Positions 27,982-51,232 of a stretch of DNA of 64,000 bases are shown here, in pieces. The notes beneath the pieces were generated by a model. That model searched no databases. It worked only from the letters and a program-made list of their open reading frames with translations, and was not told the origin of the DNA. The stretch lies in the IMG/VR virus record IMGVR_UViG_3300049988_000286, positions 352,001 to 416,000 of that record. One strand, given 5' to 3'. The position numbers and the translations under genes are program-made. The first letter of the stretch is position 1; the number at the start of each line of letters is the position of its first letter. Origin of the DNA: a virus (Duplodnaviria > Caudoviricetes).

Positions 27982-30717
27982 ATGGTTGATTATCGCCCCA
28001 CCGTGACTGTTCCGAAGACGCCGCTGCCCACGAAGGCGCGGATCGCCGATGAGCCTCGTCAGGTCGAGGCGTGGGCGGGTCTCCATGATCGCCTCGCTGC
28101 GAAGAACGAGGGTCGCCCAACTTACCTCCTCCACGACGGCCCCCCGTACGCGAACGGCAACATCCACATGGGGCACGCGCTCAACAAGGTGCTCAAGGAC
28201 GTGATCTGCCGGGGGCAGCGCGCTCTCGGCTTCGATGCTCGTCTGCACGCGGGGTGGGACTGTCGTGGTCTTCCAATCGAGTGGAAGGTCGAAGAGGATT
28301 GGCGCAAGCAGAAGCGTGACAAGAATGCCGAGCCGGAAGCATTTCGGCAGGATTGCCGCGACTATGCGGCACGGTGGGTGGATGTCCAGAAGGAGCAGTT
28401 CAAGCGGCTGGGGATCGTCGCCGACTGGGAGTCCGCGCCCTACGGTCATGGTTACCGCACGATGTCGCCCGAGATGTCGAGCCTGATCGTTTACCGCTTT
28501 CACCGCATGGTGGAGCGCGGCGATGTGTATTCGGCCAAGAAGCCGGTGTTGTGGAGTCATGTCGAGCGCACCGCTATGGCGGAGGCGGAGACCGTGGATC
28601 GCGAGCATCAGGTCGAACAGGCGTGGGTGACCTTCCGGATGTTCGCAGGGCCGCTCAAGGGCGACGATCTCCTTGTCTGGACCACCACGCCTTGGAGCCT
28701 TCCGAGCAATGTCGCGGTCGCGTACAACCCTGACATCGCCTACGGGCTTTACGAACAGCGCGGACGCCGGTTCGTGGTTGCCGACAGTTGTGTGGAACGC
28801 GCGCTGCAAAATGATTATCAGCGCCTCCGCGACATCGATCCGAAGACGGACTTCCCGCGCCATGCAGAGCATCCCCTGAACGATCTCGGCTACCCGGTTG
28901 GTGAGGACTGCGTGTCGCGGATCATGCCGGCATCCTTCGTCCGCGACAGTGCGGGAACGGGTCTTGTCCATGTCGCCCCCAGTCATTCCCGTGATGACTG
29001 GGAGGCTTGGAAGGCGCTCGATCACACGTTGACCTTCCCGACGACGATCAACGAGGATGGGCGCTACCACGACAGCCTTCCGCTGTTCGGCGGCACGGCG
29101 GTGGTCAAGGGCAAACGCCTCGGTCCCGCGAACGAGATGGTGCTCGATGCCATGGCGGAGCGTGGTACGCTCTACCGGCGCGAGACTGCTCCCCTGACCT
29201 TGCAGCACTCTTGGCGCAGCGACGCGGTTCTCCTCACGCTCGCCACTGATCAGTGGTTCATCCGCGTCACCGGGGAGGGCGGCGTGGTTGAACGTGTGCT
29301 TGCGGGATTGGCGGAGGTTGAGTTCTCCCCATCCAGCGGCGGCACGCGCATGGCCTCGATGCTGCGCGATCGTCCCGATTGGCTGGTGTCTCGTCAGCGC
29401 CTGTGGGGCACCCCCATGGCCATCTTGGCGCATCGTCGCACCGGCGAGCCCTGCCGTGATCCGGCCGTCTTGGGAGCGATCCATCAAGAGTTGATGGATC
29501 GTGGGGCGGATGCGTGGTGGAGCGAGTTCTCGGTTGAGGACATGTTCGCAGCGATCGGTCGCCCCGACGAGGCCAAGGACTGGCGGCGCGTCGATGACGT
29601 GCTCGATGTCTGGTTCGATTCTGCGTGTGTGCACGCCATCACTGGTGAGCGTGCCGATCTTGTCGTCGAGGGGAGTGATCAGAGCCGTGGCTGGTTCCAG
29701 AGCAGCGCTCTCGAAGGCATGGCCAACGATGGCGTGCTCCCGTACCGGGAAGTGCTCACCCACGGTTTCGTCCTTGACGGATCGGGGCGCAAGATGTCGA
29801 AGTCGGAGGGGAACGTCATTGATCCCATGACGGTGGTAGATCGTCTTGGCGCGGATGCGGTTCGTGTCTGGGTAGCTGCCACCGACGTTCGCGAAGACCT
29901 TCGTGTCAGTGATGCGGTGTTAGCCACCCATGCCGAGACGGTTCGCAAGGTCCGTATCACGCTTCGCTACCTCGTCGCGGCGCTGGCGGGTGTTACCGTT
30001 ACGCACGATCGGGTGATCGTCGATCCCCTCAACCGCTATGTGCTCAATCGTGTCGCGCATACCAGTGACGCGTTGTTCGCCATGCTGGCGGAGAAGGACT
30101 TCACCCGCTACGTGGCGACGATCGCGAATTTCTGCGCCAATGATCTCTCCGCCCTGCTGTTCGATGCCCGCAAGGACATCCTCTACTGCGACGGGCCGAG
30201 TGCGCGACGGGATGATTATCTCGCAACGCTCTCGGAGGTGTTTGAGCATCTGGTTCGCTGGGCGGCTCCCGTGATGGTTTTCGCGGCGGAGGAGATGTGG
30301 CAAGCCCTCCATCCAGAATCGAGCGTGCACGAGCAAGACTGGCTCCATCCCCACTGGTTGTGGAACGACGAGCGGTTGATGGAACGGTGGGCGAAGGTGC
30401 TCGATTATCGCTCGGAGATGTTGGGCAAGATTGAGGAAGTGCGTGCGGCGGGTGCGGTGAAGTCTAGCCTTGAATGCCATCTCACTGTCTTCGCCGATCC
30501 AGCGGCACGCCAGCACATGCTTGGGATCGATATGGCGGAACTCACCCTCACGGCTGGGGTGGATATCCGCTCCTTGGAGGGGCGCTTTACCGCACCGACC
30601 AACACTGTGGTGGAGCGTGTCACCACGCCGCGCTGTGACCGGTGCTGGCGGCACGTCGAGGTCGAGGCTGTCGAGGACTCGCATCTCTGTGATCGGTGCG
30701 CGGAGGTTGTGGCGTGA
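27982..30717 (+). CDS. ileS: isoleucyl-tRNA synthetase, type 1
   Basis: PYANGNIHMGH, WTTTPW and GTGLVH editing motifs, SRQR, KMSKS, C-terminal CDRC..CDRC zinc finger. Confidence 0.95.
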   Translation: MVDYRPTVTVPKTPLPTKARIADEPRQVEAWAGLHDRLAAKNEGRPTYLLHDGPPYANGNIHMGHALNKVLKDVICRGQRALGFDARLHAGWDCRGLPIEWKVEEDWRKQKRDKNAEPEAFRQDCRDYAARWVDVQKEQFKRLGIVADWESAPYGHGYRTMSPEMSSLIVYRFHRMVERGDVYSAKKPVLWSHVERTAMAEAETVDREHQVEQAWVTFRMFAGPLKGDDLLVWTTTPWSLPSNVAVAYNPDIAYGLYEQRGRRFVVADSCVERALQNDYQRLRDIDPKTDFPRHAEHPLNDLGYPVGEDCVSRIMPASFVRDSAGTGLVHVAPSHSRDDWEAWKALDHTLTFPTTINEDGRYHDSLPLFGGTAVVKGKRLGPANEMVLDAMAERGTLYRRETAPLTLQHSWRSDAVLLTLATDQWFIRVTGEGGVVERVLAGLAEVEFSPSSGGTRMASMLRDRPDWLVSRQRLWGTPMAILAHRRTGEPCRDPAVLGAIHQELMDRGADAWWSEFSVEDMFAAIGRPDEAKDWRRVDDVLDVWFDSACVHAITGERADLVVEGSDQSRGWFQSSALEGMANDGVLPYREVLTHGFVLDGSGRKMSKSEGNVIDPMTVVDRLGADAVRVWVAATDVREDLRVSDAVLATHAETVRKVRITLRYLVAALAGVTVTHDRVIVDPLNRYVLNRVAHTSDALFAMLAEKDFTRYVATIANFCANDLSALLFDARKDILYCDGPSARRDDYLATLSEVFEHLVRWAAPVMVFAAEEMWQALHPESSVHEQDWLHPHWLWNDERLMERWAKVLDYRSEMLGKIEEVRAAGAVKSSLECHLTVFADPAARQHMLGIDMAELTLTAGVDIRSLEGRFTAPTNTVVERVTTPRCDRCWRHVEVEAVEDSHLCDRCAEVVA

Positions 30718-30905
30718 GCCGCATCCTCCCCGAACCCACAGCGGAAGAGGTCCGCGCAATGCGAGATCAGAATGGGTGGGGGCTTGCCGAGTGTAAATCG
30801 ATTTTACTCAAGCTGCGAGCCAAGTCTCATGTCGCCATCCTGCGTGAGCACGACGATCGCGAGGTGCTCGCTGATGTGCTCGACTATCTAATCTCTCGCC
30901 GATAA
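30714..30905 (+). CDS. small protein resembling the EF-Ts N-terminal UBA-like domain
   Basis: TAEEVRAMRDQNGWGLAECKSIL versus EF-Ts TAxxVKELRExTGAGMMDCKKAL; GTGA overlap with ileS. Confidence 0.55.
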   Translation: MSRILPEPTAEEVRAMRDQNGWGLAECKSILLKLRAKSHVAILREHDDREVLADVLDYLISRR

Positions 30906-31159
30906 GGATACGCCATGCTCGGTGAAGCGCGGGGCGAGGACGCCCGCCGGGTGTTGGTCGGGCTCTATCCCCCGCATCGGTGATGTGGTAAAATCGGGTG
31001 TGCGACGGATCGTCGATCAGGACGCTGATCACGGATTATCCGAAGTGCGACGGGGCCTTGTCGATGGGCCTTCTCGCTTGCGAGGAAACGATCGAACGGC
31101 GGCAGGGCGTCGGAGTTGGGTCGGTCGAGAGGCCGAAACAGCCCGGTCCCAGCACAGGA

Positions 31160-31195
31160 AGAGCCGGTGACTCGTGTCACCGGCTCTCTTTGTTT
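31160..31195 (+). terminator. hairpin terminator between convergent units
   Basis: AGAGCCGGTGAC-TCGT-GTCACCGGCTCT followed by a T-rich tail. Confidence 0.75.
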
Positions 31196-31425
31196 CACGC
31201 GTAGGTGAACGACGTGTTCGCGAGTGCGTCAAGGATGGCCTGACGCTTTTTGTTGGGACGAGAGTGACCCCGACGATATGTCTGGATCATGTCAGGGGAG
31301 ACCCCGAGCGACCGCGCGATACGGCTGGTGGTCATCGCGGACCGATCGCAGAAGAGATCGAACTCCCGGCCGAAAGCGGGATAGCGGGGCGGTCGTGCAC
31401 CACCGGGGACGAAATGAATGCTCAT
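31195..31425 (-). CDS. XRE-like HTH protein
   Basis: SRIARSLGVSPDMIQTYRRGHSRP. Confidence 0.75.
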   Translation of the reverse strand: MSIHFVPGGARPPRYPAFGREFDLFCDRSAMTTSRIARSLGVSPDMIQTYRRGHSRPNKKRQAILDALANTSFTYA

Positions 31426-31754
31426 CGAGCGTTCCTCCGAAGGATGGTGACATAGCCCAGCTTGCGCAACGCGGCGACGTGCTCGCGAGCGGCAGCGGAG
31501 ACTTCCTTGTCGTTCTTCGGCTCGTCGAGCGTGAACTGCACCTTGAGCAAACGCTCCAGCGCGATAGCATTCGTGGTGGTGGGACGCGCAAAGCCGCGTC
31601 GGTAACCGCGAACAACTTCGTGGCTGACCTTCATCTCGCGCGCGATGTCGGAGATGGTGAGCGGGCTTGCGTCGAACGCTTCCGCGCACTCGCGACCAAA
31701 GGTCGGCCAAACGCAGCGGTGATGGAGAGGGTCGAATGGTTCCAACGGTCTCAT
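31422..31754 (-). CDS. XRE-like HTH protein, tandem paralog
   Basis: SDIAREMKVSHEVVRGYRRGFARP. Confidence 0.75.
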   Translation of the reverse strand: MRPLEPFDPLHHRCVWPTFGRECAEAFDASPLTISDIAREMKVSHEVVRGYRRGFARPTTTNAIALERLLKVQFTLDEPKNDKEVSAAAREHVAALRKLGYVTILRRNAR

Positions 31755-31811
31755 CGAGTTTCCTTTCAGGAAAGCGCCTTGGGATGATCCCCGTGGCGTG
31801 GCTCCTATCTA

Positions 31812-31853
31812 GAAACTCATGAAACTCTTGTCAAACAGGAAACTCATGAAACT
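31812..31853. promoter_or_regulatory. two identical 15-bp operator-like repeats flanking a -35 box
   Basis: GAAACTCATGAAACT at 31812-31826 and 31839-31853; minus-strand TTGACA(31834-31829)-17 nt-TAGATA. Confidence 0.7.
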
Positions 31854-32028
31854 AGCAGATTGCGAACTGCGGGACGTGCAGAGCGATCATCGCCTCGATC
31901 GCGCAAGGGCGGCAATATGGGGACCGCTTGGCCCCCACGTCCTCTTTGCGGCAATTCCTACACTGGAACAGATACCAGCCGGGTGCCCACCCGAACGGAG
32001 ACAAGAAACCGCTTGCCCTGTCGGGCAT
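31852..32028 (-). CDS. small zinc-finger protein
   Basis: GWAPGWYLFQCRNC...KRSPYCRPCA. Confidence 0.65.
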   Translation of the reverse strand: MPDRASGFLSPFGWAPGWYLFQCRNCRKEDVGAKRSPYCRPCAIEAMIALHVPQFAIC

Positions 32029-32032
32029 GGGT

Positions 32033-32218
32033 TTATTCGTCGGAATCTTCACTGCTCGCTCCGAGAAGAAGCGCGATGAGGAGGATGCCGCCAACGAGCG
32101 TCATGTACGATCCTCCCTCGCGCAAACCGAAATCTTGCAGGAAGCCACCACCGATCAGCAGCGCGGCTCCCGCGACAAAGATTTTCCCCATGGCGCGGTG
32201 ACGGGCCGAATCAGGCAT
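32033..32218 (-). CDS. small membrane protein
   Basis: Two hydrophobic helices; the true start may be internal. Confidence 0.55.
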   Translation of the reverse strand: MPDSARHRAMGKIFVAGAALLIGGGFLQDFGLREGGSYMTLVGGILLIALLLGASSEDSDE

Positions 32219-32444
32219 CGGGCGTGACCTTGACGCTGCTCGCGGGCACCCAACGACCGTTGACCTGTAGCTGGCACGAGTAAGTCACCCATGTATCGGT
32301 TCCATTGGCGACTACCCGCCACTGAAAGCCGCTCTCGCCCCAATCAGTCCGACAGGCGGCAGCCGCCCGCTTCCTTGAGTATTCGATCTCCTCCTTTGTC
32401 AGAGAACACCCCGAGAGGAGGAGGAGCGTGAGGAGATACCTCAC
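32211..32444 (-). CDS. putative lipoprotein
   Basis: MRYLLTLLLLSGC lipobox. Confidence 0.7.
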   Translation of the reverse strand: MRYLLTLLLLSGCSLTKEEIEYSRKRAAAACRTDWGESGFQWRVVANGTDTWVTYSCQLQVNGRWVPASSVKVTPDA

Positions 32445-34582
32445 GCCACCCCTTCCTCGATCAGGACTGCGGCATCGGCGAGATCGAATACACGATCCGC
32501 CTCTTCCCGCGTCCCCACCACCTCACCGCGCGCCCGCGCATGGAGCATCGCGACATCATAGGCGGTGGGCTTTCGCTCATTGAGCGTCATCACCGCCTCC
32601 GTGATGGCTTTCTGCTTCTCGTTCTGACCCACCACCGCACCGTAGCGCGAGGTGCCGCCCGAGATGTCGGCGAAGATCACCTTTCGCTCCACGAGGTCGA
32701 AGAACAGCGGCATGTGAGCCGTCACCGGGGCGTTGACCTCAAACTTGAGAGCAACGCTCTCCGGCTCATAGGTCTTGCCCGACGCCACCGCGTCACGCTC
32801 CATGAATCCTGCGTGGCAGGGGAAAGTGCTGAACTTCTGTCCCGTGAAGGAATTGATGTTCATCGCCACATAGCGGGCCGTCGATTTCAGCTTGCCGAGA
32901 TCGATATCGATGAACTCCGACGCCCCGTTGGGGGCATCCTGAATATCACCCGAGTGGACAACGGCACGATCACCCGAATACAGGTTAGTGTAGGCGACAT
33001 GGCCGCGCGGCGCGAACTCCTCATCCAAGTACACAGCCGAGAGATCGACATCGACGCGACCCGCCCCGCCATTCTCCCAGTAGATGAACAGGCGCACGAC
33101 ATCACCCGAGAAGGCGAAACGCGATCCCTTGTTGACCATCACGGATGCCGAAGAGTCGCCGCGACGGTTGAAGGGCAGGATGATGTCCTTGAGCGCGGGA
33201 TCGACGAATACGCGACCCAATGCCTCGCGATCACGGACACGGGACTGCAACTCCTCGTCGATGGTGACGAGAAGACGAACCTTCGCATCGGTGGGCAGCG
33301 GCGGACGCGTCTCCGCAACGATCTGCGCTTTGTTGACCTGACCCTTGGGGAAGAACACGCGCTGCTTGAGGGCGTCGCGCGATTCGAGATACTTGCGAAG
33401 CTCGAACAACATCTTCTCGGTAAGGCGCGGGGCCACCTGCTTGAACCCCGTGGTGACGATGCGGGAATCGTCCGCGCTGCGGAGCATGAAGTCCAGCTTG
33501 CGCGCAAATTCACCGGGGCGCTCCGCCATCAGGCGAACGAAATCGAAATCGATCGCGCGGGCACGAATCCCCTCCTCCATCTGACGCGTGAACGTCACGA
33601 TGTTCTTGGGATCGTTGCGCAGACGATCGAAGGCACGCGCCACATTGGGGAACGCCTTGCGGTTCTTCGCCGTGCCGGGATTGAGACGCTCACCAAGGCG
33701 CAGCCAGCGCTCGCGGCTGCGCATCATGTCTTCGGCGAGATTGGCGAGCGGCTCCAAGAGCGTGAGCATTCCACGACGCTGCGAGGTCGAAAGCTTGAAC
33801 TTGACGTTCGCCTTCAACGACAGATCGGCCTTGTCATCGCTCAAGAAGGTAGCGATGCGCATGACATCGGTGGCTCCGGAGAGACCATCCCGCACCGCGT
33901 CTGCGCCGAACAACTGGTAGGCGAACGGCAGCGTCTCCTTGAAAAGCGGACCCTCGAAGCGCAGCGCGACCTTGCGCGATACAAGATCACGCAGAACTGC
34001 CTTCTCGTCCTCGGACAACGATGACTGGCGTGCCAGCATCGCGTTGCCCTCCGTAGCGAAACCATCGCGCGACAGGCCAAGCGGCTTGAGCGGCGTCACC
34101 GCCGAGAAAGCCACACGCTCGGTCTCCGGCGAACCCAGTTCGGGCACCGCGCGCTGACAGATCGGGCACGCACCGAAATCCGACACATCGAAGAGCGCGG
34201 AGTCGATCACGTGGCCGCACGACAATGCCGTGAGTGTGTTGCCGCCAAGACGGATGTCGAGCGCCGATGCCATCCAGCCGATCACGCGCTTCTCCATGTA
34301 GTCGCGCTGATCCGGGGTATCGTAGGGGAAGCCGTTGAACAGCTTGGTGCGCTTCTTATCCGCGCCAGAGATGACCGAGAGATCGGAGACGATCTGGTCG
34401 CGCAGCGCGCGAAAACCGTTATTCCCCAGTCCACGCATGGCGTCGAGTAGCGGCGCGTCGGGGGCATAGCCCAACATGGCGACTTCGAGTGTGAAAGCGC
34501 TAACCAGACGCTCATCGGTCTTGGCTTCGATCGCGGGCTGCGTGACTGCAACCTTACCGTAAAGCTTGAGCGTCTCGATCAT
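32441..34582 (-). CDS. large TerD-domain stress-response protein
   Basis: C-terminal VDVDLSAV...HSGDIQDAPNGASEFIDIDL TerD motifs after a helical region. Confidence 0.8.
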   Translation of the reverse strand: MIETLKLYGKVAVTQPAIEAKTDERLVSAFTLEVAMLGYAPDAPLLDAMRGLGNNGFRALRDQIVSDLSVISGADKKRTKLFNGFPYDTPDQRDYMEKRVIGWMASALDIRLGGNTLTALSCGHVIDSALFDVSDFGACPICQRAVPELGSPETERVAFSAVTPLKPLGLSRDGFATEGNAMLARQSSLSEDEKAVLRDLVSRKVALRFEGPLFKETLPFAYQLFGADAVRDGLSGATDVMRIATFLSDDKADLSLKANVKFKLSTSQRRGMLTLLEPLANLAEDMMRSRERWLRLGERLNPGTAKNRKAFPNVARAFDRLRNDPKNIVTFTRQMEEGIRARAIDFDFVRLMAERPGEFARKLDFMLRSADDSRIVTTGFKQVAPRLTEKMLFELRKYLESRDALKQRVFFPKGQVNKAQIVAETRPPLPTDAKVRLLVTIDEELQSRVRDREALGRVFVDPALKDIILPFNRRGDSSASVMVNKGSRFAFSGDVVRLFIYWENGGAGRVDVDLSAVYLDEEFAPRGHVAYTNLYSGDRAVVHSGDIQDAPNGASEFIDIDLGKLKSTARYVAMNINSFTGQKFSTFPCHAGFMERDAVASGKTYEPESVALKFEVNAPVTAHMPLFFDLVERKVIFADISGGTSRYGAVVGQNEKQKAITEAVMTLNERKPTAYDVAMLHARARGEVVGTREEADRVFDLADAAVLIEEGVA

Positions 34583-34603
34583 TGCTGTTCCCCAAATAAA
34601 GGC

Positions 34604-34666
34604 GTCGGGCAAATCCGGCAGCTATTCAGTGCAGAGAAGAGAAGGAAGCGCACCGATGCGCCCGAC
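34604..34666 (-). promoter_or_regulatory. structured 5' leader of the TerD-domain gene
   Basis: Outer stem GTCGGGC/GCCCGAC; inner stem TCGGTGCG/TGCACTGA closing a 15-nt all-pyrimidine loop; TTGACG-17 nt-TAGAGA just upstream. Confidence 0.55.
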
Positions 34667-34698
34667 AGTTGTGTCTCTAGCCCGAGTTCGCTCTGGCG

Positions 34699-34953
34699 TC
34701 AATTGAATTCCGCAAGTCGCTCGCGCAGGAATGCCACGGATTCCCGCGTAGGCACGGTGGCTCGAATCACACCGGGGTGGTGGATGGCGAAATGCACCAC
34801 ATCACCGAAGATGCGGATGATACCATGGCCGGGAAATCTCCCCCGCCCTGCGATCCTGTTATTCCAACGGTTTCGCCGCCCCCATGGGAAGGGCTGTCCC
34901 TCATGCTGGGTGCCCAGCAACGCGGCAAATTCCGCGTAAAGATCATTTTCCAT
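34699..34953 (-). CDS. hypothetical protein
   Basis: RWNNRIAGRGRFPGHGIIR motif. Confidence 0.65.
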   Translation of the reverse strand: MENDLYAEFAALLGTQHEGQPFPWGRRNRWNNRIAGRGRFPGHGIIRIFGDVVHFAIHHPGVIRATVPTRESVAFLRERLAEFN

Positions 34954-35042: not shown

Positions 35043-35777
35043 ATGTTCAACCAATCCATTCAAGAATTCGTCGAAGCAGTCAGTCCCCAGATGAATATCT
35101 GGCACAACACTACACGGAAGGGTGATACCGGCGCGGGACATACCTGTGAGACAATTATCTTCGGGAAGGAAGAAGACAACAAATCTCTCGCGGACTTCAT
35201 GGGTTTCGAGTGCAAGTCGGTCCTCGCCACATCGAAGAACGCGCGAGTCCGATTGCTCAATTTCGCAGGAGGGGCGGAGGCAGAATTGTGTAAGCGTTTT
35301 GGGAAGGTGAGCCCCACGCGAGGTTACAATTCCTTTACCCGCCAACTACGATGCAACAAGCCGATCCGGGCGAACGGCTCCTCGATTGCCCTCGTCATCG
35401 AAGATAATGAACTCTCCCTACTCGTCGATGGACAAGAGCGCGTCGGAGAATGGCTTGTTGATGCGCCGGGGCGCAGTATTGCAACCAAGGTCGCTGACAA
35501 GATCGCCGATATGGCGCTGATCCGCTACGAGAAGCGCATCCAAGATGGTTTGCAGCAATATCGCTATACGGGGGTGGACTTCCACACCGGTTTGTCTCTT
35601 CCGCGCCTCATCACCGCTTTCGGCGCACAACACATTGCGGTAGAATTCCGCTACACGGACAAGAAGGACTATGGCACGAGTTTCAACATGTCCATGCGCC
35701 ACATGGAGGGATACTGGCCCCATCATACGACGGTAACGTGGGGCGATGGTCCGCCGAGACTCACTGCTAGGCGATAA
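35043..35777 (+). CDS. MvaI/BcnI-family endonuclease-like protein
   Basis: GAGHTCE...EDN...ADFMGFECKS (PD-D/ExK type). Confidence 0.7.
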   Translation: MFNQSIQEFVEAVSPQMNIWHNTTRKGDTGAGHTCETIIFGKEEDNKSLADFMGFECKSVLATSKNARVRLLNFAGGAEAELCKRFGKVSPTRGYNSFTRQLRCNKPIRANGSSIALVIEDNELSLLVDGQERVGEWLVDAPGRSIATKVADKIADMALIRYEKRIQDGLQQYRYTGVDFHTGLSLPRLITAFGAQHIAVEFRYTDKKDYGTSFNMSMRHMEGYWPHHTTVTWGDGPPRLTARR

Positions 35778-39691: not shown

Positions 39692-39957
39692 AGCCAGACC
39701 TTCCGCCCCCGGCAATCCGCGCTATGCTCCACCGCTGCGATCTTGAACAAGGCGGCGTTGCCGTCGTCGCGGAAGTATAACAAGGCGGCGTTATTACGAT
39801 CAACGACGTGCCTCATATACTGGTCTTCGGGCACGTTCTCTTCACACCATGCCAATACAGCCTCGATCTTCTCCGCGATATTGTCTGGATAGCGGAGCCG
39901 GTGGAAGACGAATTTGGTCCACTCCTCGCCGGTGAGGAGTTCCCGTCGATACCTCAC
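39688..39957 (-). CDS. paralog family A protein
   Basis: AWCEENV and LYFRDDGNAALFKI motifs. Confidence 0.7.
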   Translation of the reverse strand: MRYRRELLTGEEWTKFVFHRLRYPDNIAEKIEAVLAWCEENVPEDQYMRHVVDRNNAALLYFRDDGNAALFKIAAVEHSADCRGRKVWL

Positions 39958-40532
39958 GTCAGGGTCCGCAAACCCGTGACATCCTCGTCGAGATCGATCT
40001 CGTGAACGGGACCAAGACCAAGACAGGTGATCGTCGGCTTCGGGCTGCCGTCATCGTTCTTGAAGACCGTCAGACCCGCGTCCTTGACCAACGAGACGCC
40101 GCAACGCTCGCGATACTTGGCTTCCAAGGCGATCAACTCCGCCTCCGTGGGGACCACCAGCGTGATCTTGAAGGCGCGCTGACTACCCCGATACGAGGCT
40201 GCCACGAGGGGGAAACGCAGAAGGCTGTCCCAATACGCATGGACGTACCCGTGCCCCCCTTGCGTGATCATCTTGCCCCGCACCCCCTTCATCTGGTCCA
40301 AGGCTTCTTTGGAAAAGATGCAATATTGCTTCAGTTTGACGCCCCGATAGCGAGCCATCCACGCCCGTTGCAGCCGCCAGCGATCCATTCCATAGTAGAG
40401 GACGCCCCCTACGGCGAGCAGAATACCACCGAGATGGGAGAAATTGTCCCCGACGAGCGCGCCGGTGATGACGAGGCCAAGTAGCCACACCTGACCGCGC
40501 TTGCGCTGTTCCTGAAATTCACCTGCCATCAT
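39954..40532 (-). CDS. peptidyl-tRNA hydrolase type 2 with an N-terminal membrane segment
   Basis: GKMITQGGHG, FKITL, DAGLT and TCLGLGP Pth2 motifs. Confidence 0.8.
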   Translation of the reverse strand: MMAGEFQEQRKRGQVWLLGLVITGALVGDNFSHLGGILLAVGGVLYYGMDRWRLQRAWMARYRGVKLKQYCIFSKEALDQMKGVRGKMITQGGHGYVHAYWDSLLRFPLVAASYRGSQRAFKITLVVPTEAELIALEAKYRERCGVSLVKDAGLTVFKNDDGSPKPTITCLGLGPVHEIDLDEDVTGLRTLT

Positions 40533-41054: not shown

Positions 41055-41149
41055 TGGTACGCCCGGAGGGATTCGAACCCCCAACCGTTCCGCGATCTGC
41101 GGATCATGAGGTATAAGCTCACCGCTCTAACCAATTGAGCTACGGGCGC
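41055..41149 (-). tRNA. tRNA-Ile(UAU) with a long variable region (95 nt)
   Basis: GCGCCCG/CGGGCGT acceptor, canonical D-arm, GTGAG-CTTATAC-CTCAT anticodon arm, 23-nt variable region, TTCGAAT T-loop, CCA. Confidence 0.85.
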
Positions 41150-44463: not shown

Positions 44464-44957
44464 CGGGGCATCTCCGCAAATACCCGGTCACATGCCCGCA
44501 ACAGCGCGTTGACGCGGCGGAACGGCACATCGGGGTTGATGATGTCGGCACAGGGACTTGGACGATACGCCGCCATCGAGGCGCGGCTGATCTCCTCGTT
44601 ACAGAGGCGTCGAAGACCATCAACGGCGTCGCGCAGCCCGGTTTGCTCCGACCGGTTGATCTCCTCGATCTTCTTCGCAATTCCCCGCATGAGGATCATG
44701 CAATCCATTGCGGGATCAAGGGCTCCGATCTCTACGTTGTGCTCACCCTCTTTGGTGATGCTCGTCATCACTCGCGCGAGGATCGCTGTGACCTCATGCG
44801 CGGGCGTCCCCACTGGTGTTATGCAGAGCGATCGGTCTTCGCTGCTCCGCGTCAGCGCCTCTGCGCTTTCGGCCTCTACCTCCTGATCGGCGATAACGCC
44901 ATAGTGGTTCGCAGTGATGTGCCGCAGCCGCATGATCTTCTCCTCGCGCCCGTCCAT
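44460..44957 (-). CDS. hypothetical protein
   Basis: Start uncertain within a longer ORF. Confidence 0.5.
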   Translation of the reverse strand: MDGREEKIMRLRHITANHYGVIADQEVEAESAEALTRSSEDRSLCITPVGTPAHEVTAILARVMTSITKEGEHNVEIGALDPAMDCMILMRGIAKKIEEINRSEQTGLRDAVDGLRRLCNEEISRASMAAYRPSPCADIINPDVPFRRVNALLRACDRVFAEMPR

Positions 44958-45282
44958 GAAGGCAAAGCGGATTTTGGTCAACCCGCGCTTGACTCCATAG
45001 TCAATCGGCGGTAGCTCTACTGTATTCCGCCACCGAGCCGTTCCCGCGATGGGGAGTCTCCGGCAACGAAGCGGATACAAGATAGATGAGACAGGGGGAG
45101 AGACACCCTGACGCCAAGAAGACTTGGAGTGTTTCATCAGGGCTTTGCGGGGTATGCAGAACCCCGGCGGCATTCTAAAGCCGTGCGCAAGCCATTGGGG
45201 TTGGATTCCCCGGCCTGTGTTCTTGGGTACCACAGTGGGGTGGCGAATAGAGGCATGACCTCAACCTCGCCGCCCCACAGTA

Positions 45283-45495
45283 TTAACCCGCGTGAGCAAG
45301 ATAGCAGAGTTGCGCATCCTCGACGCTGGTAAAATAGATATAGCGGGTGAAGCTATAAATCGGCGCGAGCGAGTGATCGTGCGCCCACGCGAGCACTGCC
45401 TCGAAGTTATCCGCAACCGTTACATGAGCTTTGACGGCTACCCGGCCATGACCGATCGTGTTTAACTCACGTTCTTCGATGTAGAGGCGTGTCAT
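45283..45495 (-). CDS. paralog family A protein
   Basis: IYFTSVEDAQLCYLAH. Confidence 0.7.
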   Translation of the reverse strand: MTRLYIEERELNTIGHGRVAVKAHVTVADNFEAVLAWAHDHSLAPIYSFTRYIYFTSVEDAQLCYLAHAG

Positions 45496-45515
45496 AGAAT
45501 AAGGACGAGGCCTAT

Positions 45516-45544
45516 AAAAGAGGCCCGGAATTGCTTCCGGGCCT
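45516..45544 (-). terminator. rho-independent terminator
   Basis: AGGCCCGGAA-GCAA-TTCCGGGCCT followed by CTTTT. Confidence 0.8.
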
Positions 45545-45550
45545 AGCTGG

Positions 45551-45670
45551 TTATTCGGCGGGCCGGGGCTGCGGGGCGATCCTCGACGCCTCGGTGACGG
45601 GCAGACCCGCCTCCGTGGGGACGTAGATCAGCGTCGCCTTGCTGTTCTCGATCGCCTGAATCTCGCTCCA
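45551..45670 (-). pseudogene. C-terminal remnant of an SPFH/membrane-protease-subunit-like gene
   Basis: Start-less 39-codon frame ...AIENSKATLIYVPTEAGLPVTEASR behind an in-frame TAG. Confidence 0.45.
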
Positions 45671-45741
45671 CTAGCCCTCGTCTCTTTGGATATCGACCAT
45701 GAACCAGTTGATCTCCAAACAATCACCGCACAGACGATCGC

Positions 45742-46107
45742 TTAATCGTCCATCAGCGACATGCCAAGTCCGAGTAGCCCCACCGTCGTCGCGGTCCCGA
45801 GGACCGTTCCCGCCGCACCGGCGAAGAGATCATCGGTGGTGCCCCGTGATGGCTGCTGCATGATCTGGATGGCAGCCAACACCGCGTAGGGATTGTGGGG
45901 CGCGGGTTCACCACGCTGGGCTCGCTTCTCCTCCTCGATGAGCCGCCGCCCCCATGCGATGAGCTTCTCGTTCTGGATGCGGCGTTCCTCGTCGGTCATC
46001 GGCACCGGTTCGGGTCGGGGTTCGACTTTCGGCGAACGCAGACCGAAGTAGAGCATGACGCCAACGCAACCGAGAAACGCGAGTGTGAACCAGTGTAGAA
46101 GGGACAT
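45742..46107 (-). CDS. membrane-anchored hypothetical protein
   Basis: AGGAG SD; N-terminal TM helix. Confidence 0.7.
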   Translation of the reverse strand: MSLLHWFTLAFLGCVGVMLYFGLRSPKVEPRPEPVPMTDEERRIQNEKLIAWGRRLIEEEKRAQRGEPAPHNPYAVLAAIQIMQQPSRGTTDDLFAGAAGTVLGTATTVGLLGLGMSLMDD

Positions 46108-46150
46108 AATCTTCTCCTTTACGTCCCTTTACACCATCGTTATAGTTCGG

Positions 46151-46408
46151 TCAACGCCAATCGCCCATGTCGAACACGCGACCGAGATAGATACGGACAA
46201 TCTCGTAATCACGCTCACGGATGATCACGCAATAAAGACCGGGCGCGTTTCCGAGATCATCATCCCGAAGCTTTCCTAGAATCGCACGACTGCCCTTGAG
46301 CCAAGATGGTAGACCGCCTTTCCACAACATCCCAACATCGTTGGCGCGGCACCATCGGGCGAACGGGACGATCCCCGCCTTGATCATGATTCTTCGGTTC
46401 ACACGCAC
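46151..46408 (-). CDS. paralog family B protein
   Basis: RWCRANDV and IIRERDYEIVRIYLG motifs. Confidence 0.7.
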   Translation of the reverse strand: MRVNRRIMIKAGIVPFARWCRANDVGMLWKGGLPSWLKGSRAILGKLRDDDLGNAPGLYCVIIRERDYEIVRIYLGRVFDMGDWR

Positions 46409-46638
46409 ACCAGATTGCCACCAAGGTATTCCCGCACGGCTTTGAGGTCACGATCCCGGATGATATAAGCACGGATGAGCAACACGTGACCCGCAAATTC
46501 GTAACCGTGCCAGCGACGCGATCCTACGCGGGTCACCACGAACGGATCAAGGGTTTTATATTCCCAGAGGATTGGTATGCGCATCGCCCGGCACCAAACC
46601 ATCAAGGACGGTGGCCGCGCTTGCGTGATGACCCTCAT
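46399..46638 (-). CDS. paralog family B protein
   Basis: VWCRAMRIPI and IIRDRDLKAVREYLG motifs. Confidence 0.7.
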   Translation of the reverse strand: MRVITQARPPSLMVWCRAMRIPILWEYKTLDPFVVTRVGSRRWHGYEFAGHVLLIRAYIIRDRDLKAVREYLGGNLVCV

Positions 46639-46665
46639 CGAAGCACCCTCAAATTACACAGATAG

Positions 46666-46758
46666 AGGGTAAGGAGGTCGATCCGTGATTGCCTTGAATT
46701 ATATTGCACCGAAGAGGAGGATGCGGCACTGATCAAGCTGGCTTTCGAGGGTATGTAA
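46666..46758 (+). pseudogene. start-less family A C-terminal remnant
   Basis: ...ELYCTEEEDAALIKLAFEGM* after an in-frame TAG. Confidence 0.4.
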
Positions 46759-46858
46759 TGTTCTGGGTTCTTTGCGAGAACGACGACGATCAGGACGACC
46801 CGAACGTCGTGTTCGACACAGATGGCAGTTTGGCTGTCTTTACAGATGCGGAGGCCTG

Positions 46859-46996
46859 ATGAAGCTATGTTGGATGGGGATTCATCGCTACATGACATGG
46901 TGGCCCCCATATCTAGATCATAAGGTTGTTCAGCAGCCACAATGGACTTCATGTCGTTATTGCGGCAAATGGAAAAGACGCTACACGGTAAAGTGA
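46859..46996 (+). CDS. 45-aa Cys/His zinc-binding peptide
   Basis: MKLCWMGIH...CRYCGK; GGAGG SD. Confidence 0.55.
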   Translation: MKLCWMGIHRYMTWWPPYLDHKVVQQPQWTSCRYCGKWKRRYTVK

Positions 46997-47178
46997 ACGG
47001 CATGGCGTCAAAGCCGTCCCCACCACCGCCCTCCTTTGTCATGCGATTGTTCTGTGAATACGCGAAAAATCTCCATTGATGTGCTGTCCCGCTCGCACAA
47101 TCATGCAGATGGGAACTGCATTACGCCGCCCCCATTCGAGCACATCTATGAGCGAACAATCGACTTCGATGATCCGGT

Positions 47179-47430
47179 TCATCGCACCACCTCCACTGAT
47201 CCCACATACAGGGTAAGTAGGTCGAAGTCACGATCGCGGACGATGATCCGGTAGGAACGTGATATCCGCGAGAACTTACTATAGCGAGCGAGGATGCGCC
47301 GCGACCCAATCGTCTTCAATTCCGGATTATAATTTAGACGCGGCACATAGAGCAATGCCGGAACGCCAGCGCTGCGGCACCATTCCATCAGGGTGACGAG
47401 GGGAGCGTGGACCTTGATGAGACGGTTCAT
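47179..47430 (-). CDS. paralog family B protein
   Basis: EWCRSAGVPA and IIVRDRDFDLLTLYVG motifs. Confidence 0.7.
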   Translation of the reverse strand: MNRLIKVHAPLVTLMEWCRSAGVPALLYVPRLNYNPELKTIGSRRILARYSKFSRISRSYRIIVRDRDFDLLTLYVGSVEVVR

Positions 47431-47666
47431 CCATCCATCCCGTTCAACCGTAGAGCGACCTCCTCCGGGGTTCCCAACACGTTGTAGTCCTCCCCCACCT
47501 CCATGACGATCTGGGTAACGCCCGCATCGTATTCCAAGATGGATACGACATGCCGGGGATTGACCCAAACGTTGCCCACGCCCTGCCACGCACCCCACTG
47601 CGCACCGGCCTGCGGCAGTGTAGTGGGGAGACGCTGACGAGCGGCTCGTATGAACGGTATGAACAT
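47427..47666 (-). CDS. small FlbD-like protein
   Basis: WVNPRHVVSI...TQIVM..GEDYNV..TPEEV. Confidence 0.55.
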   Translation of the reverse strand: MFIPFIRAARQRLPTTLPQAGAQWGAWQGVGNVWVNPRHVVSILEYDAGVTQIVMEVGEDYNVLGTPEEVALRLNGMDG

Positions 47667-47735
47667 CCCCCGTGTATGCGCGCGCGGAGACGGGGGTGCA
47701 ATAAAGGCTTCCGGGGATCGATAGTTTGGGGAGGG

Positions 47736-47811
47736 TGGTGCCCACTGACCGACTTGCACGGTCCATCTCCGGGTTACAAATCCGGCACAGCGCTATCTCT
47801 GTTTAGCGGGC
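47736..47811 (-). tRNA. tRNA-Thr(UGU), atypical elbow
   Basis: GCCCGCT/AGTGGGC acceptor, TTTGTAA loop, T-loop TGCAAGT, D-loop lacks GG, CCA. Confidence 0.8.
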
Positions 47812-47819
47812 AGAAGCAA

Positions 47820-47907
47820 TGGCGGGCGAGGTGGGATTCGAACCCACGGAACCTTGCGGTTCGTCACGTTAGCAGTGTGGTGGTTTCGGCCTCTCACCCA
47901 CTCGCCC
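47820..47907 (-). tRNA. tRNA-Ser(GCU)
   Basis: CTGCTAA loop, long variable arm, TTCGAAT T-loop, CCA; weak anticodon stem. Confidence 0.85.
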
Positions 47908-47922
47908 GTATTCTATAGCTGA

Positions 47923-48010
47923 TGGTGGAATCGGTGGGATTCGAACCCACGGAACCTTGCGGTTCACTCGCTTTCCAAGCGAGCCCGATCGGCCACTCTG
48001 GCACGATTCC
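47923..48010 (-). tRNA. tRNA-Ser(GGA)
   Basis: CTCGC-TTGGAAA-GCGAG anticodon arm, long variable arm, CCA. Confidence 0.95.
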
Positions 48011-48023
48011 ATATCAGAAACTC

Positions 48024-48113
48024 TGGAGGAGCCGACCCGATTCGAACGGGTGAGACCTTGCGGTCTGCTCGTTTTCAAGACGAGTGCGTTAAACCGGGCT
48101 CCGCCACGGCTCC
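48024..48113 (-). tRNA. tRNA-Ser(UGA)
   Basis: CTCGT-CTTGAAA-ACGAG anticodon arm, long variable arm, CCA. Confidence 0.95.
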
Positions 48114-48114
48114 T

Positions 48115-48483
48115 TTATGTCAGACCAAGTTCCTGCATGTCAACCGAAGGAACGGTCCAATTCTTTATCCTTTTACCCCAGATGGCCTTCATCCTCGGTA
48201 AAGTGAGGGGCTCGATCCGAAGAGCGCCGCAATCAGCACCCAAGTAGTCCGCAAGAAACTCATCTCGCGACTGGCGTAATCCTCGTGCATCACCGAAAAC
48301 ATCCTCGCCGAACATGACACCAACATGTCGCGGAACAGTGTCCCAAACATCGTCGAAGATTCCTACTAGGGTTCCGCCATGAAGATCGTGCAGCGTCGCC
48401 GCCATCACCATGCATTCACCGCGTTGATAACGCTCTAGCGCCGACCTGTCATCATCGAAAGCGTCGATCTCAAAAATTCGCAT
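48115..48483 (-). CDS. late gene with papain/transglutaminase-like triad; paralog of 23927-24361
   Basis: MRIFEI start; GECMVMA, PRHVGV and FGDARG motifs. Confidence 0.7.
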   Translation of the reverse strand: MRIFEIDAFDDDRSALERYQRGECMVMAATLHDLHGGTLVGIFDDVWDTVPRHVGVMFGEDVFGDARGLRQSRDEFLADYLGADCGALRIEPLTLPRMKAIWGKRIKNWTVPSVDMQELGLT

Positions 48484-48487
48484 CTGG

Positions 48488-48493
48488 TATTTA
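48488..48493 (-). promoter_or_regulatory. late promoter TAAATA
   Basis: 4 nt to ATG 48483. Confidence 0.75.
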
Positions 48494-48582
48494 GTGGTGC
48501 CCTCGGAAGGAATCAAACCTTACGTTTCCGACGTACCAAGTCGGCGTTCTATCATTGAACTACGAGGGCGTAGTTGTTAAAC

Positions 48583-48741
48583 CTATAAATCGATTGAAGG
48601 GTCGATCGTCCCCGCACGGGCGAGCAGATCATCTACCCACCGTCGCTCCTCAATCTCACGCTTGATCTCTTCGATCGCTACGCGTGCGGTCTCGGCATCC
48701 ATGTCGCCGACATCGATGTAATGGATTGTGCGCTCGGTCAC
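48583..48741 (-). CDS. 52-aa protein (not in the supplied ORF track)
   Basis: GTG start overlaps the upstream stop; MTERTIHYIDVGDMDAETA... Confidence 0.55.
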   Translation of the reverse strand: MTERTIHYIDVGDMDAETARVAIEEIKREIEERRWVDDLLARAGTIDPSIDL

Positions 48742-48941
48742 GGGTTCTTCTTCAACTGGCGCTGCAACTGTTCGCCGATGCCGCGAATGGTATCCGCGCC
48801 GGAATAGAGGATCGTCGTCTGCTCACCATTGCTGTGCAGCCAAGTCACCAGTGTAGAGTCCTCGGTGACGAAGTTGGCGTTCTCGATGTAGGCGTCTTCC
48901 AGCGCCTCGAAGACGGTCTTGGTAGGGGCGATATTTGTCAT
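48738..48941 (-). CDS. hypothetical protein
   Basis: AAGGGGG SD. Confidence 0.65.
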   Translation of the reverse strand: MTNIAPTKTVFEALEDAYIENANFVTEDSTLVTWLHSNGEQTTILYSGADTIRGIGEQLQRQLKKNP

Positions 48942-48978
48942 CCCCCCTTATACCTCGACGGGTCGCCGCGCGGCAATA

Positions 48979-49281
48979 TTAAGCCGTGGTGCGACCAGCG
49001 AACATCGTTGAGCAGAGGACGAAACCGGTCTCGTCATCCAGCATAACGGCGATGCGATCATGCTCAACCACAACGACCGAGTGGAAGATCGCATTCTCGT
49101 GGCACCACCGCTCCATCTCTACGGAGAGGGGCGTGGCACCATCGCCAGTAAGGCCGATCATCAGGCGCTCCGCGTTGAACGTGATCTCGACCGACAGAGG
49201 AGTGTAGAAAGCCCTTGCCGACAACATCTTGTTGATCACCGCATCGACGCTTTGATTCCAGAGATGCGCTTTCGATTTCAT
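48979..49281 (-). CDS. paralog family A-like protein
   Basis: RWCHEN and VMLDDETGFVLCSTMF motifs; TTGACA promoter. Confidence 0.65.
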   Translation of the reverse strand: MKSKAHLWNQSVDAVINKMLSARAFYTPLSVEITFNAERLMIGLTGDGATPLSVEMERWCHENAIFHSVVVVEHDRIAVMLDDETGFVLCSTMFAGRTTA

Positions 49282-49305
49282 CCCCGGTTGGTAATCATGC
49301 GCGAA

Positions 49306-49803
49306 CTATTTGTCAAGGTTTTTCCGGCGGTGCCAATGCTCCTCCATGTGGCAAGTTGGACAAAGGAATTCGAGGTTTGCCATTTCATCAGAACCACCCT
49401 TCGATCGCTCTACAATGTGGTGAACCTGAACAATCTCCGGAATCTTCTCATAGGAACAACGTTCGCATCGTTCCGCACCTTTGAACTCAATCAGCCTAGA
49501 CCTTATTGAGGCGTGTTTTACAACGGCGCTCTTCAGGGGTTTACCTGTCTGTTTATAGTTTATACCGGCACGATGTTTGTTTGAACAGCGTTTGGAGCAG
49601 GTGACACGACTAGCCGCCCCCATGAAGGTCTCTTGGCACACAGGGCAGAGTTTTGGCTTTGAACAGTGTTGTCCAAAGCACGCTCGACTACAGAATACAC
49701 CCACTTTGTCGGTGCCCATACGAGATGGTCGGCGATAAATCGCTTTGCTGCAAACAGAACATTCCGTGTTTGGTGGCGATATGTAACCGGGCTTACTAGG
49801 CAT
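49306..49803 (-). CDS. HNH homing endonuclease
   Basis: CERC...VHHI...GG...NL..LCPTCH plus N-terminal CxxC/CSxxC repeats. Confidence 0.85.
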   Translation of the reverse strand: MPSKPGYISPPNTECSVCSKAIYRRPSRMGTDKVGVFCSRACFGQHCSKPKLCPVCQETFMGAASRVTCSKRCSNKHRAGINYKQTGKPLKSAVVKHASIRSRLIEFKGAERCERCSYEKIPEIVQVHHIVERSKGGSDEMANLEFLCPTCHMEEHWHRRKNLDK

Positions 49804-49851
49804 ACTCTGCAAGGTATGCTAATTTCGCCCGGCAGAGCGATATTAAAATGA

Positions 49852-49941
49852 TGGCGGAGGGCCGAGGACATGCTCCCCACACGATTGCCCGTGCGTTCGG
49901 TTTTCGAGGCCGACCCAGCGCGCTTGTCTGGTTGACCCTCC
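49852..49941 (-). tRNA. tRNA-Ser(CGA), atypical elbow
   Basis: GGAGGGT/GCCCTCC acceptor, CTCGAAA loop, long variable arm, T-loop AGCATGT, CCA. Confidence 0.75.
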
Positions 49942-49954
49942 GTAACTGTAATCT

Positions 49955-50305
49955 CTATGCCATATTCGGCAAGTTAGGCGCAATCGGGCACCGCGATATC
50001 CTTACCAGAAAGTATCGCGCAGCCACCAAAGCTTTGAGCCGAACCTTGATCGGGACATCCGTCTTCTTGGCGACGCGGAGGCATCGAGCCACGAAATGAA
50101 TATCGGCGATATGTTGGCGACGACGCTTGTCCGCTGCATCGCCGCGATAACTCTTGTCATACTCGCAGTCATGCTTGAAGCACGCTTTGTCGAGTTCATC
50201 GATGGGAGCGCCGCCGCAATTACCCGGCCCGCAATAGTTGCCATGGAAGCGGATGAAGCGCTTCGTTGGTGCTAATGGGGCTTCGAACAGATGGCGGCTG
50301 CGCAT
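49955..50305 (-). CDS. phospholipase A2-like late protein with internal-protein-like N-terminus
   Basis: MRSRHLFEA start; YCGPGN Ca-loop, DKACFKHDCEY (HD) and ADIHF motifs. Confidence 0.8.
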   Translation of the reverse strand: MRSRHLFEAPLAPTKRFIRFHGNYCGPGNCGGAPIDELDKACFKHDCEYDKSYRGDAADKRRRQHIADIHFVARCLRVAKKTDVPIKVRLKALVAARYFLVRISRCPIAPNLPNMA

Positions 50306-50309
50306 CTGT

Positions 50310-50315
50310 TATTTA
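50310..50315 (-). promoter_or_regulatory. late promoter TAAATA
   Basis: 4 nt to ATG 50305. Confidence 0.75.
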
Positions 50316-50413
50316 CACTGGCTTGACGGAGTTTGCACCGCAAGGTGTTGGCGTACCGTGGCACCCAGATCGTCGTGAAGAGACCTCCTCTTACCGGAGC
50401 CGACGATCAACCA

Positions 50414-50590
50414 TTACATTTCGTATAGGACTACCGTCCAATCTCGATCATCGAAGTGGTAGCGGCGGTAGTGGACTTGTCCGAAGAGTCCATCGATCCC
50501 GTCGATGTAATCACCGCTATTGGGAACGGTGGGCATGTCGCGCTCACCAAGTATGCGATTGTCGGCATCGCGGAAGATGACGCGGTTCAA
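50414..50590 (-). CDS. 58-aa protein coupled to rpsU (not in the supplied ORF track)
   Basis: TTG start overlaps the rpsU TGA; MNRVIFRDADNRILG... Confidence 0.55.
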   Translation of the reverse strand: MNRVIFRDADNRILGERDMPTVPNSGDYIDGIDGLFGQVHYRRYHFDDRDWTVVLYEM

Positions 50591-50787
50591 CGATCGCGTT
50601 CCGCTCGCTGACGATCGGCTTTCCTCGATCGCTTGACCGCAGCGGCGCGAGCCTTGGCCTTAACTTCGCTGGGCTTCATGTAGTGGGCGCGCTGTTTCAT
50701 TTCACGCAGGATGCCCTCGCGCTGCATCTTGCGCTTCAAGACCTTCAAGGCCTTGTCCATATTCCCGTCCTGAACCGCTACCCGCAT
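50587..50787 (-). CDS. rpsU: ribosomal protein bS21
   Basis: DKALKVLKRKMQREGILREMKQRAHYMKPSE matches alphaproteobacterial bS21; AAGGA SD. Confidence 0.9.
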   Translation of the reverse strand: MRVAVQDGNMDKALKVLKRKMQREGILREMKQRAHYMKPSEVKAKARAAAVKRSRKADRQRAERDR

Positions 50788-50844
50788 TGTGTGATCCTTT
50801 CGGAGACGGGCTAGCTGGGAGTTCGGACGAGGGCAAGAGGGAAG

Positions 50845-50920
50845 TGGAGCCCGAGGTCGGGATTGAACCGACGACCTGTCCCTTACGAGGGGACTGCAAC
50901 TACCACTGTGCTACTCGGGC
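50845..50920 (-). tRNA. tRNA-Thr(CGU)
   Basis: GTCCC-CTCGTAA-GGGAC anticodon arm, TTCAAT T-loop, CCA. Confidence 0.9.
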
Positions 50921-50969
50921 GTGTGAAGGGTTGACAGGGGCTATGCCCCTAGAAGAAAAAATCGGTGAC

Positions 50970-51045
50970 TGGCAGGAGCGCCGAGACTCGAACTCGGAAC
51001 CTACGGGATTGGAAGCCGGTGCTCTACCAATTGAGCTACACTCCT
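50970..51045 (-). tRNA. tRNA-Trp(CCA)
   Basis: A1-U72 and G73 identity elements, TTCCAAT loop; anticodon stem has only 3 pairs. Confidence 0.75.
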
Positions 51046-51052
51046 ACAGTCA

Positions 51053-51126
51053 TGGTTGGCACGGGTGGTAATGCTCCACCGTCTCGGCTTTATCAGAACC
51101 TTGCTCTACTTTTGAGCTACGCGCCA
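51053..51126 (-). tRNA. tRNA-Ile(GAU), atypical elbow
   Basis: CTGATAA loop, T-loop AGCATTA, D-loop AAAAGTA, CCA. Confidence 0.8.
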
Positions 51127-51156
51127 TCAGTGACAGACAACCGGTCTGTCAGCGGG

Positions 51157-51232
51157 TGGTGGTGACGGCTGGGCTCGAACCAGCGACATACGCGTCATCA
51201 ACACGTCGTTCTTCCAACTGAACTACGCCACC
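51157..51232 (-). tRNA. tRNA-Ile(GAU) with G37
   Basis: ACGTG-TTGATGA-CGCGT anticodon arm, canonical D and T arms, CCA. Confidence 0.85.

Follow-up and report, generated by a model that had tools for sequence, protein, structure and literature searches.

Does a huge phage that carries an isoleucyl-tRNA synthetase gene (ileS) together with three unusual tRNA-Ile genes own a closed isoleucine pair, or do these genes belong to a more general translation repertoire? The question is raised by a 64,000-nt stretch of DNA (the window; G000:C1:352001-416000) from the 499,572-bp IMG/VR virus record IMGVR_UViG_3300049988_000286, which CheckV rates as complete. Here, ileS and the three tRNA-Ile genes lie on opposite strands, 10 to 20 kb apart. 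A first-pass annotation of the window had proposed that they form a self-contained, semi-orthogonal module. Its parts list was confirmed: an intact type-1 open reading frame (ORF), its motifs and a TIGR00392 score above the cut-off identify a full-length IleRS, and the three tRNA-Ile genes do show the described oddities, namely a 23-nt variable region with C38, a G37 and an AGCAUUA T-loop (Table 1). The proposed pairing fared differently. With a probability of about 0.62, we consider the region to be part of the general translation toolkit of a ~500-kb phage and not a closed isoleucine pair, because the genome holds six aminoacyl-tRNA synthetase (aaRS)-like genes and about 45 tRNAs, and because long variable arms and C38 occur throughout it. 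Within this toolkit, the UAU tRNA belongs to a widespread and seemingly unpublished tRNA family, whose extra arm displays a second, GAU-bearing loop.

A tRNA-Ile(UAU) family with a GAU-bearing second arm

The UAU tRNA has its anticodon at 41115-41113 in the loop CUUAUAC, with U33, A37 and C38, and combines a 7/5 cloverleaf with a class I-like 4-bp D stem; A73, C4-G69 and U12-A23 can be read from the sequence. Three of 36 IMG/VR ileS loci have a tRNA(UAU) of 90 to 93 nt within 10 kb, and when these were aligned with the UAU tRNA of the window, their extra arms shared only the loop CAGAU while the stems differed. The corresponding motif pattern was found at no fewer than 120 IMG/VR loci, against the ~14 that we estimate to be expected by chance, and among the matches listed, 109 are tRNA-Ile(tat) genes of 88 to 99 nt according to ARAGORN (87 distinct sequences). 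The extra arm consists of a 3- to 5-bp stem, with 28 distinct stems, closing a 7-nt loop; in a 58-sequence alignment, the arm helix was 99.4% paired, and both-side changes occurred at all three counted pairs. A scan that dropped the loop requirement and covered viral contigs with the GGTTCGAATCC T-loop only found GAU at loop positions 3 to 5 in 114 of 117 long-arm tRNA(UAU) genes, in the forms CAGAU, UAGAU, CCGAU and CUGAU (the exceptions are L198, L218 and L226). The arm loop is a copy of the tRNA-Ile(GAU) anticodon loop, and in Actinomyces it is exactly CUGAUAA. By its 7/5 cloverleaf, U33/A37 loop, A73 and GAU-bearing arm, the UAU tRNA of the window is a member of this two-arm family.

Allo-tRNA(UAU) and the nematode nev-tRNAIle(UAU) also join a UAU anticodon to a long variable arm (PMC5389517, PMC3333845). 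However, the bodies of those molecules are 8/4, 9/3 or of the class II Leu type and their arm loop is not conserved, whereas the UAU tRNA here has a 7/5 body, a D arm of class I and a GAU heptaloop that is conserved. Its 7-bp acceptor and 5-bp T stem (not 8/4 or 9/3) rule out an allo-tRNA identity. Pairing of the V-loop with the T-loop (GAUU/AAUC) could also be ruled out, as the sequences read contain loop variants without covariation with the T-loop. A literature search returned no description of a GAU-bearing extra arm.

The two-arm family is carried by phages that infect cyanobacteria, lactobacilli or many uncultured hosts, and it is present on bacterial chromosomes too. Among cultured carriers, the gene is annotated as tRNA-Ile in Levilactobacillus phage ENFP1 and has no annotation in Lactobacillus phage LpeD or the Synechococcus phages S-SRM01 and S-SKS1. 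The family was also seen in cellular assemblies (49 of 120 pattern matches listed), among them Actinomyces, tRNA arrays of Pyrinomonadaceae, and Ruegeria. As Actinomyces and cultured phage-host pairs (Synechococcus, Lactobacillus) have the family, it is directly testable.

Two-arm tRNAs and ileS are mostly carried apart

Dedicated partners would be expected to co-occur across relatives, and in neither direction was this seen. Among two-arm carrier records of at least 40 kb, ileS was present in 1 of 40 and lacking in 39; it was present in none of the six carrier IMG/VR genomes with a completeness of 90% or more and in none of the four carrier GenBank phage genomes. When the ileS-bearing viral records were searched with covariance model R1 (threshold, at least 65 bits), the family was found in 4 of 27, leaving 23 with ileS and no such UAU tRNA, and in two of the nine near-complete ones. 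The annotation had itself named this survey of relatives as a check, and at the family level the outcome, together with the occurrence of two-arm tRNAs on bacterial chromosomes, refutes a self-contained module for the UAU tRNA. The UAU family is thus met mostly where only the host IleRS is available.

Where ileS and a two-arm tRNA do co-occur, they are 4.5 to 10.3 kb apart in five of five cases (the source phage, L013, L025, L031 and L011), in genomes of 208 to 533 kb, and a search of the whole records found no second family member elsewhere in them. By our arithmetic, such linkage is very unlikely to arise by chance, although translation genes cluster and a shared ancestry of the five cases is possible.

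Bacterial carriers bear on the modification status of the family. The two-arm tRNA was found in four of 101 Actinomycetaceae genomes, TilS was missing in six, and all four carriers are among those six. That these carriers do without TilS argues for an Ile identity of the tRNA and for its charging by the ordinary cellular IleRS, and more generally the family looks like a TilS-independent tRNA-Ile served by ordinary enzymes. The independence from TilS that the annotation had foreseen held up, as a UAU anticodon needs no lysidine and a search of the phage genome found no TilS. TsaC/Sua5 was not found there either. In the four carriers (G063, G093, G134 and G259), the two-arm tRNA is chromosomal and has the arm loop CUGAUAA; they may represent one clade and one evolutionary event. 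Two further genomes (G199 and G275) lack both TilS and the two-arm tRNA and may be incomplete or use another route.

A probable general translation repertoire

Huge phages encode up to 15 aaRS and 67 tRNAs (PMC7162821), and the source phage resembles them in being larger than 200 kb, in its many tRNAs and in encoding several aaRS that have cellular relatives but differ from them. ARAGORN called 42 tRNAs and a transfer-messenger RNA in the whole genome. The annotation had regarded the IleRS as the only aaRS of the window, which is true among the classes searched; the genome has five further aaRS-like genes elsewhere, for SerRS, a LeuRS-like protein, class I LysRS, CysRS and a class Ib Tyr/Trp-type enzyme. 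PF00152 and PF00749 had no matches in the phage genome. The LeuRS-like protein (426 aa; G000:C1:29319-30599, plus strand, outside the window) adjoins a tRNA array and covers only parts of the bacterial LeuRS model, with 353 bits against a cut-off of 548, so that it is truncated or split.

Two of the features that the annotation had regarded as abnormal run through the whole genome. C38 is common among the tRNAs of the phage genome and not Ile-specific, and long variable arms also occur in its tRNA-Met(CAU), tRNA-Arg(ACG), two tRNA-Asn, tRNA-Cys, tRNA-Gln(CUG) and both tRNA-Glu genes. These non-Ile arms are capped by GNRA or UUCG tetraloops and not by GAU loops; therefore, within the phage genome the GAU loop is specific to the UAU tRNA. 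The tetraloop-capped genes (for example, G000:C1:25686-25776, 26983-27073, 52274-52364, 68172-68259 and 453376-453545) belong to normally short-arm tRNA types and often adjoin an isoacceptor of normal length.

Isoleucine is encoded by ATC in 75% of cases genome-wide and by ATA in 7% (3.9 per 1,000 codons). ATA is the third rarest sense codon but still occurs about once per gene. The phage enzyme and tRNAs might serve to raise the Ile decoding capacity late in infection. An extra synthetase copy that goes with tRNAs of unusual identity features is known from ProRSx/tRNAProX of Streptomyces; here, in contrast, the enzyme and the tRNAs proved neither obligatory companions nor neighbors, and we detected no change in recognition residues. 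That a huge-phage genome encodes both a synthetase and its cognate tRNAs does not by itself point to an orthogonal pair.

A divergent IleRS that keeps the canonical recognition residues

The phage IleRS is a divergent member of the type-1 enzymes, as its TIGR00392 score (624.1 bits) is barely above the cut-off of 621.4. In the alignment, ATG 27982 lines up with the first residue of IleRS homologues. Pfam recognizes the tRNA-synt_1, Anticodon_1 and zf-FPG_IleRS domains, and the motifs HMGH (68-71) and KMSKS (610-614), like the editing motifs WTTTPWS and GTGLVH, are invariant across relatives in two alignments. The C-terminal Zn finger, in which Arg-Cys-Trp contact the wobble base, reads C891-x-R893-C894-W895...C909-x-R911-C912, and W895 aligns with W905 of the Escherichia coli enzyme. 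The E. coli IleRS handles UAU 360-fold less well than LAU, with W905 as the key residue, and N6-threonylcarbamoyladenosine at position 37 (t6A37) matters greatly to it (PMC3575796). Since the phage enzyme retains the wobble-reading Trp and the Zn finger, there is no altered recognition among these residues, which are the contacts compared.

Mycoplasma mobile also decodes AUA by a tRNAIle2(UAU) without TilS (PMC3575796), and the bacterial two-arm carriers likewise lack tilS. Its solution is a Trp-to-Arg change at the wobble-stacking residue of IleRS (Arg865); there the enzyme has been adapted, whereas the phage keeps Trp and its tRNA has an extra, GAU-displaying arm. The close IleRS relatives keep Trp as well, and among the viral IleRS an Arg at this site was found only in L011 and L016. 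In these two (L011:10001-12694 and L016:10001-12412), Arg and not Trp follows the first CxxC, as in M. mobile; L011 also has a two-arm tRNA, with the arm loop CUGAUUA, and L016 has none.

Neither a megablast search of GenBank phages with ileS nor an IMG/VR scan with a single sequence gave any matches; the 36 IMG/VR loci mentioned above came from an alignment-based scan. The IleRS falls into a clade with 100/100 support, comprising 23 sequences on phage-like contigs of 62 to 563 kb, and a long stem separates it from the alphaproteobacterial enzymes, which are the nearest cellular ones (~40 to 42% identity). It represents an old, phage-specific lineage, which is compatible with both a toolkit and a dedicated pair. 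Its closest relatives, L194 and L195, have no tRNA within 10 kb.

A possible role of the second arm

As a candidate mechanism, we propose that the extra arm, with its short stem and its loop of the form Y-N-G-A-U-N-R, mimics the anticodon loop of tRNA-Ile(GAU). Its GAU would supply the identity signal that U34 lacks, and an ordinary IleRS, good on G34 and L34 but poor on U34, could thereby accept the UAU tRNA. The arm may act directly, or it may swap places with the UAU arm. Class I aaRS approach the tRNA on the face away from the class II variable arm, and for this reason a GAU hairpin stacked in the anticodon-arm position during charging would be more plausible than a direct reading of the side arm. 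If the arm does make IleRS accept the UAU tRNA, tRNA identity would here be written in a new way, and the arm would offer a natural, portable means of decoding AUA that does not require TilS. This would be of use in codon reassignment and in explaining the tRNA genes of phages.

The long variable arm and A73 could also be taken as signs of a class II-like tRNA that LeuRS or SerRS charges, so that AUA would be partly recoded in phage proteins. The phage genome encodes SerRS and the LeuRS-like gene, and the nev-tRNAIle(UAU) is leucylated in vitro (PMC3333845, PMC4300185). However, the D arm is class I-like with a 4-bp stem, and A73, C4-G69 and U12-A23 are Ile determinants. Neither LeuRS nor SerRS would have any use for a conserved GAU loop, the other long arms of this genome end in GNRA or UUCG, and the Actinomycetaceae carriers without TilS need their two-arm tRNA as the Ile reader of AUA. 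We regard such recoding as highly improbable.

The G37 tRNA and the case for a semi-orthogonal pair

When 572 distinct phage tRNAs that have an NNU anticodon were compared, position 37 was A in 571 of them and G in one. In the first tRNA-Ile(GAU) gene (51157-51232), G37 excludes t6A37; the UAU tRNA has A37. According to RNAfold, the G37 loop can close to a GAU triloop through U32-A38 and U33-G37, so that its decoding competence is uncertain. Contigs of run X2, with flanks diverged by ~8 to 12%, show no listed difference in this tRNA, including at 51196, with two unlisted substitutions in the 116-nt piece that cannot be placed. One other clear GAU tRNA with G37 was found, in the ileS-bearing 543-kb phage G041, at a distance of over 100 kb from ileS; the 46 records without ileS that were searched yielded none. 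The resulting counts, 2 of ~26 in ileS-bearing records against 0 of ~18 in those without it (A37-type matches, 23 and 18), do not differ significantly. The G37 tRNA is probably a maintained functional variant, and it may specially need the phage enzyme for its charging.

The original proposal would account for these observations by a host IleRS that charges the odd tRNAs poorly and a phage IleRS adapted to them, which would insulate Ile decoding from t6A and TilS status and from nucleases. The t6A37 that G37 excludes is important for E. coli IleRS (PMC3575796), and Al-Shayeb et al. have suggested in general terms that phage aaRS may charge the phage's own tRNA variants (PMC7162821). The extreme rarity of G37, its persistence between diverged flanks, its second occurrence in an ileS-bearing genome, the linkage within 10.3 kb in all five co-occurring cases and the long divergence of the IleRS lineage all speak for such a pair. 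Against it stand the mostly separate carriage of the UAU family and ileS, the canonical W895 and other recognition motifs, the opposite strands and the 10- to 20-kb spacing of the genes in the window, the non-significant G37 counts, the distant location of the G37 tRNA in G041 and the seemingly dispensable T-loop variant (see below). Compared with the huge-phage repertoires described earlier (PMC7162821), the tRNA variants are defined here specifically and their pairing was tested by co-occurrence, which is obligatory in neither direction. We therefore consider a semi-orthogonal pair unlikely. A combined arrangement, in which IleRS reads the extra arm as a surrogate anticodon while the phage IleRS, freed of t6A37, alone charges the G37 tRNA, would give an Ile supply needing neither TilS nor the t6A machinery; we put this forward only tentatively.

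Several points weigh against the general toolkit that we favor. The linkage within 10.3 kb in five of five cases exceeds what a loose toolkit would lead one to expect, and the G37 tRNA is left unexplained by it. As for the second arm, its direct reading by a class I IleRS is sterically doubtful, and both the Ile identity of the two-arm family and the role of its extra arm are what we infer from sequence comparisons.

The second tRNA-Ile(GAU) has the loop CUGAUAA (A37/A38), the AGCAUUA T-loop, a D-loop AAAAGUA without G18G19 and a U1-A72 pair, and it folds into a clean cloverleaf at minimum free energy (z, -3.2). Run X2 has no coverage of it; in the contigs of that run, 51157 is followed by either 51048 or 50941, at joints that have a 29-nt side and are flagged as weak. 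The pattern points to a cassette that some strains have and others lack, and the T-loop variant is probably accessory.

The deviations of these tRNAs (G37, the T-loop, the extra arm and a weak tRNA-Trp stem) could also serve mainly to evade tRNA-targeting defences of the host, for example anticodon nucleases, or to act as decoys, the IleRS being unrelated to them. Changes in their loops have been reported to protect phage tRNAs from host nucleases. Many tRNAs of the genome deviate in the anticodon loop or the arms, and a nuclease that targets tRNA-Ile(GAU) could be lured away by the extra GAU loop. However, we identified neither a nuclease nor a defence context, chromosomal carriers such as Actinomyces have no obvious need of such protection, and the GAU loop is conserved across hosts of several phyla. 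Defence evasion is therefore an improbable explanation.

Table 1. Translation-related features of the window (positions in the window)
Feature	Position	Strand	Evidence and details
ileS, type-1 (bacterial, Zn-finger) isoleucyl-tRNA synthetase, 911 aa	27982..30717	+	Pfam, TIGR00392, motifs; ORF opens at GTG 27964
PTH2-type peptidyl-tRNA hydrolase-like gene (archaeal/eukaryotic type)	39954..40532	-	Pfam PF01981, E 1.3e-9; two genes downstream of the UAU tRNA
tRNA-Ile(UAU), two-arm family, 95 nt	41055..41149	-	ARAGORN; Rfam, 60.5 bits; model R1, 75.7 bits, full-length
Extra (variable) arm of the UAU tRNA	41089..41103	-	Stem UCCG/CGGA, loop CAGAUCG; GAU at 41097-41095
tRNA-Thr(CGU), last gene of the tRNA array	50845..50920	-	ARAGORN, Rfam
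tRNA-Trp(CCA)-like	50970..51045	-	ARAGORN reads an 8-nt loop with 'ucca'; Rfam
Second tRNA-Ile(GAU)	51053..51126	-	Rfam only, 45.5 bits; not called by ARAGORN
tRNA-Ile(GAU) with G37, first gene of the tRNA array	51157..51232	-	ARAGORN, Rfam; loop UUGAUGA; G37 at 51196

Host and further features

The guanine-plus-cytosine content is ~57%. The only sequencing run that contains the full stretch is a leaf metagenome, and no RNA run contains it. Class I LysRS is frequent in Alphaproteobacteria. This enzyme, the alphaproteobacterial affinity of the nearest cellular IleRS and the leaf metagenome source weakly suggest that the host is a phyllosphere alphaproteobacterium. A homology search with the ORF adjoining the tRNA array of the window returned a sole relative, of 1.1 kb.

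The tRNA-Trp(CCA)-like gene of the array has a weakened anticodon stem of three to four pairs (C31.C39, C27.U43) and U38, while look-alike contigs from other organisms have U31-A39 and A38; tRNA-Trp with 4-bp anticodon stems has been linked to UGA reading (PMC13092985), and TGA is the commonest stop codon of the phage genome. Outside the window, the phage has two tRNAs with a CUA anticodon (G000:C1:102238-102314, plus strand, and 106351-106425, minus strand), which are amber suppressors under the ARAGORN label 'Pyl'. TAG is the least used stop codon (87 of 506 long ORFs), and together with the CUA tRNAs this may point to TAG read-through or partial recoding. Between ileS and the tRNA genes of the window lies a homologue of the MvaI/BcnI family of restriction endonucleases (35043-35777, plus strand).

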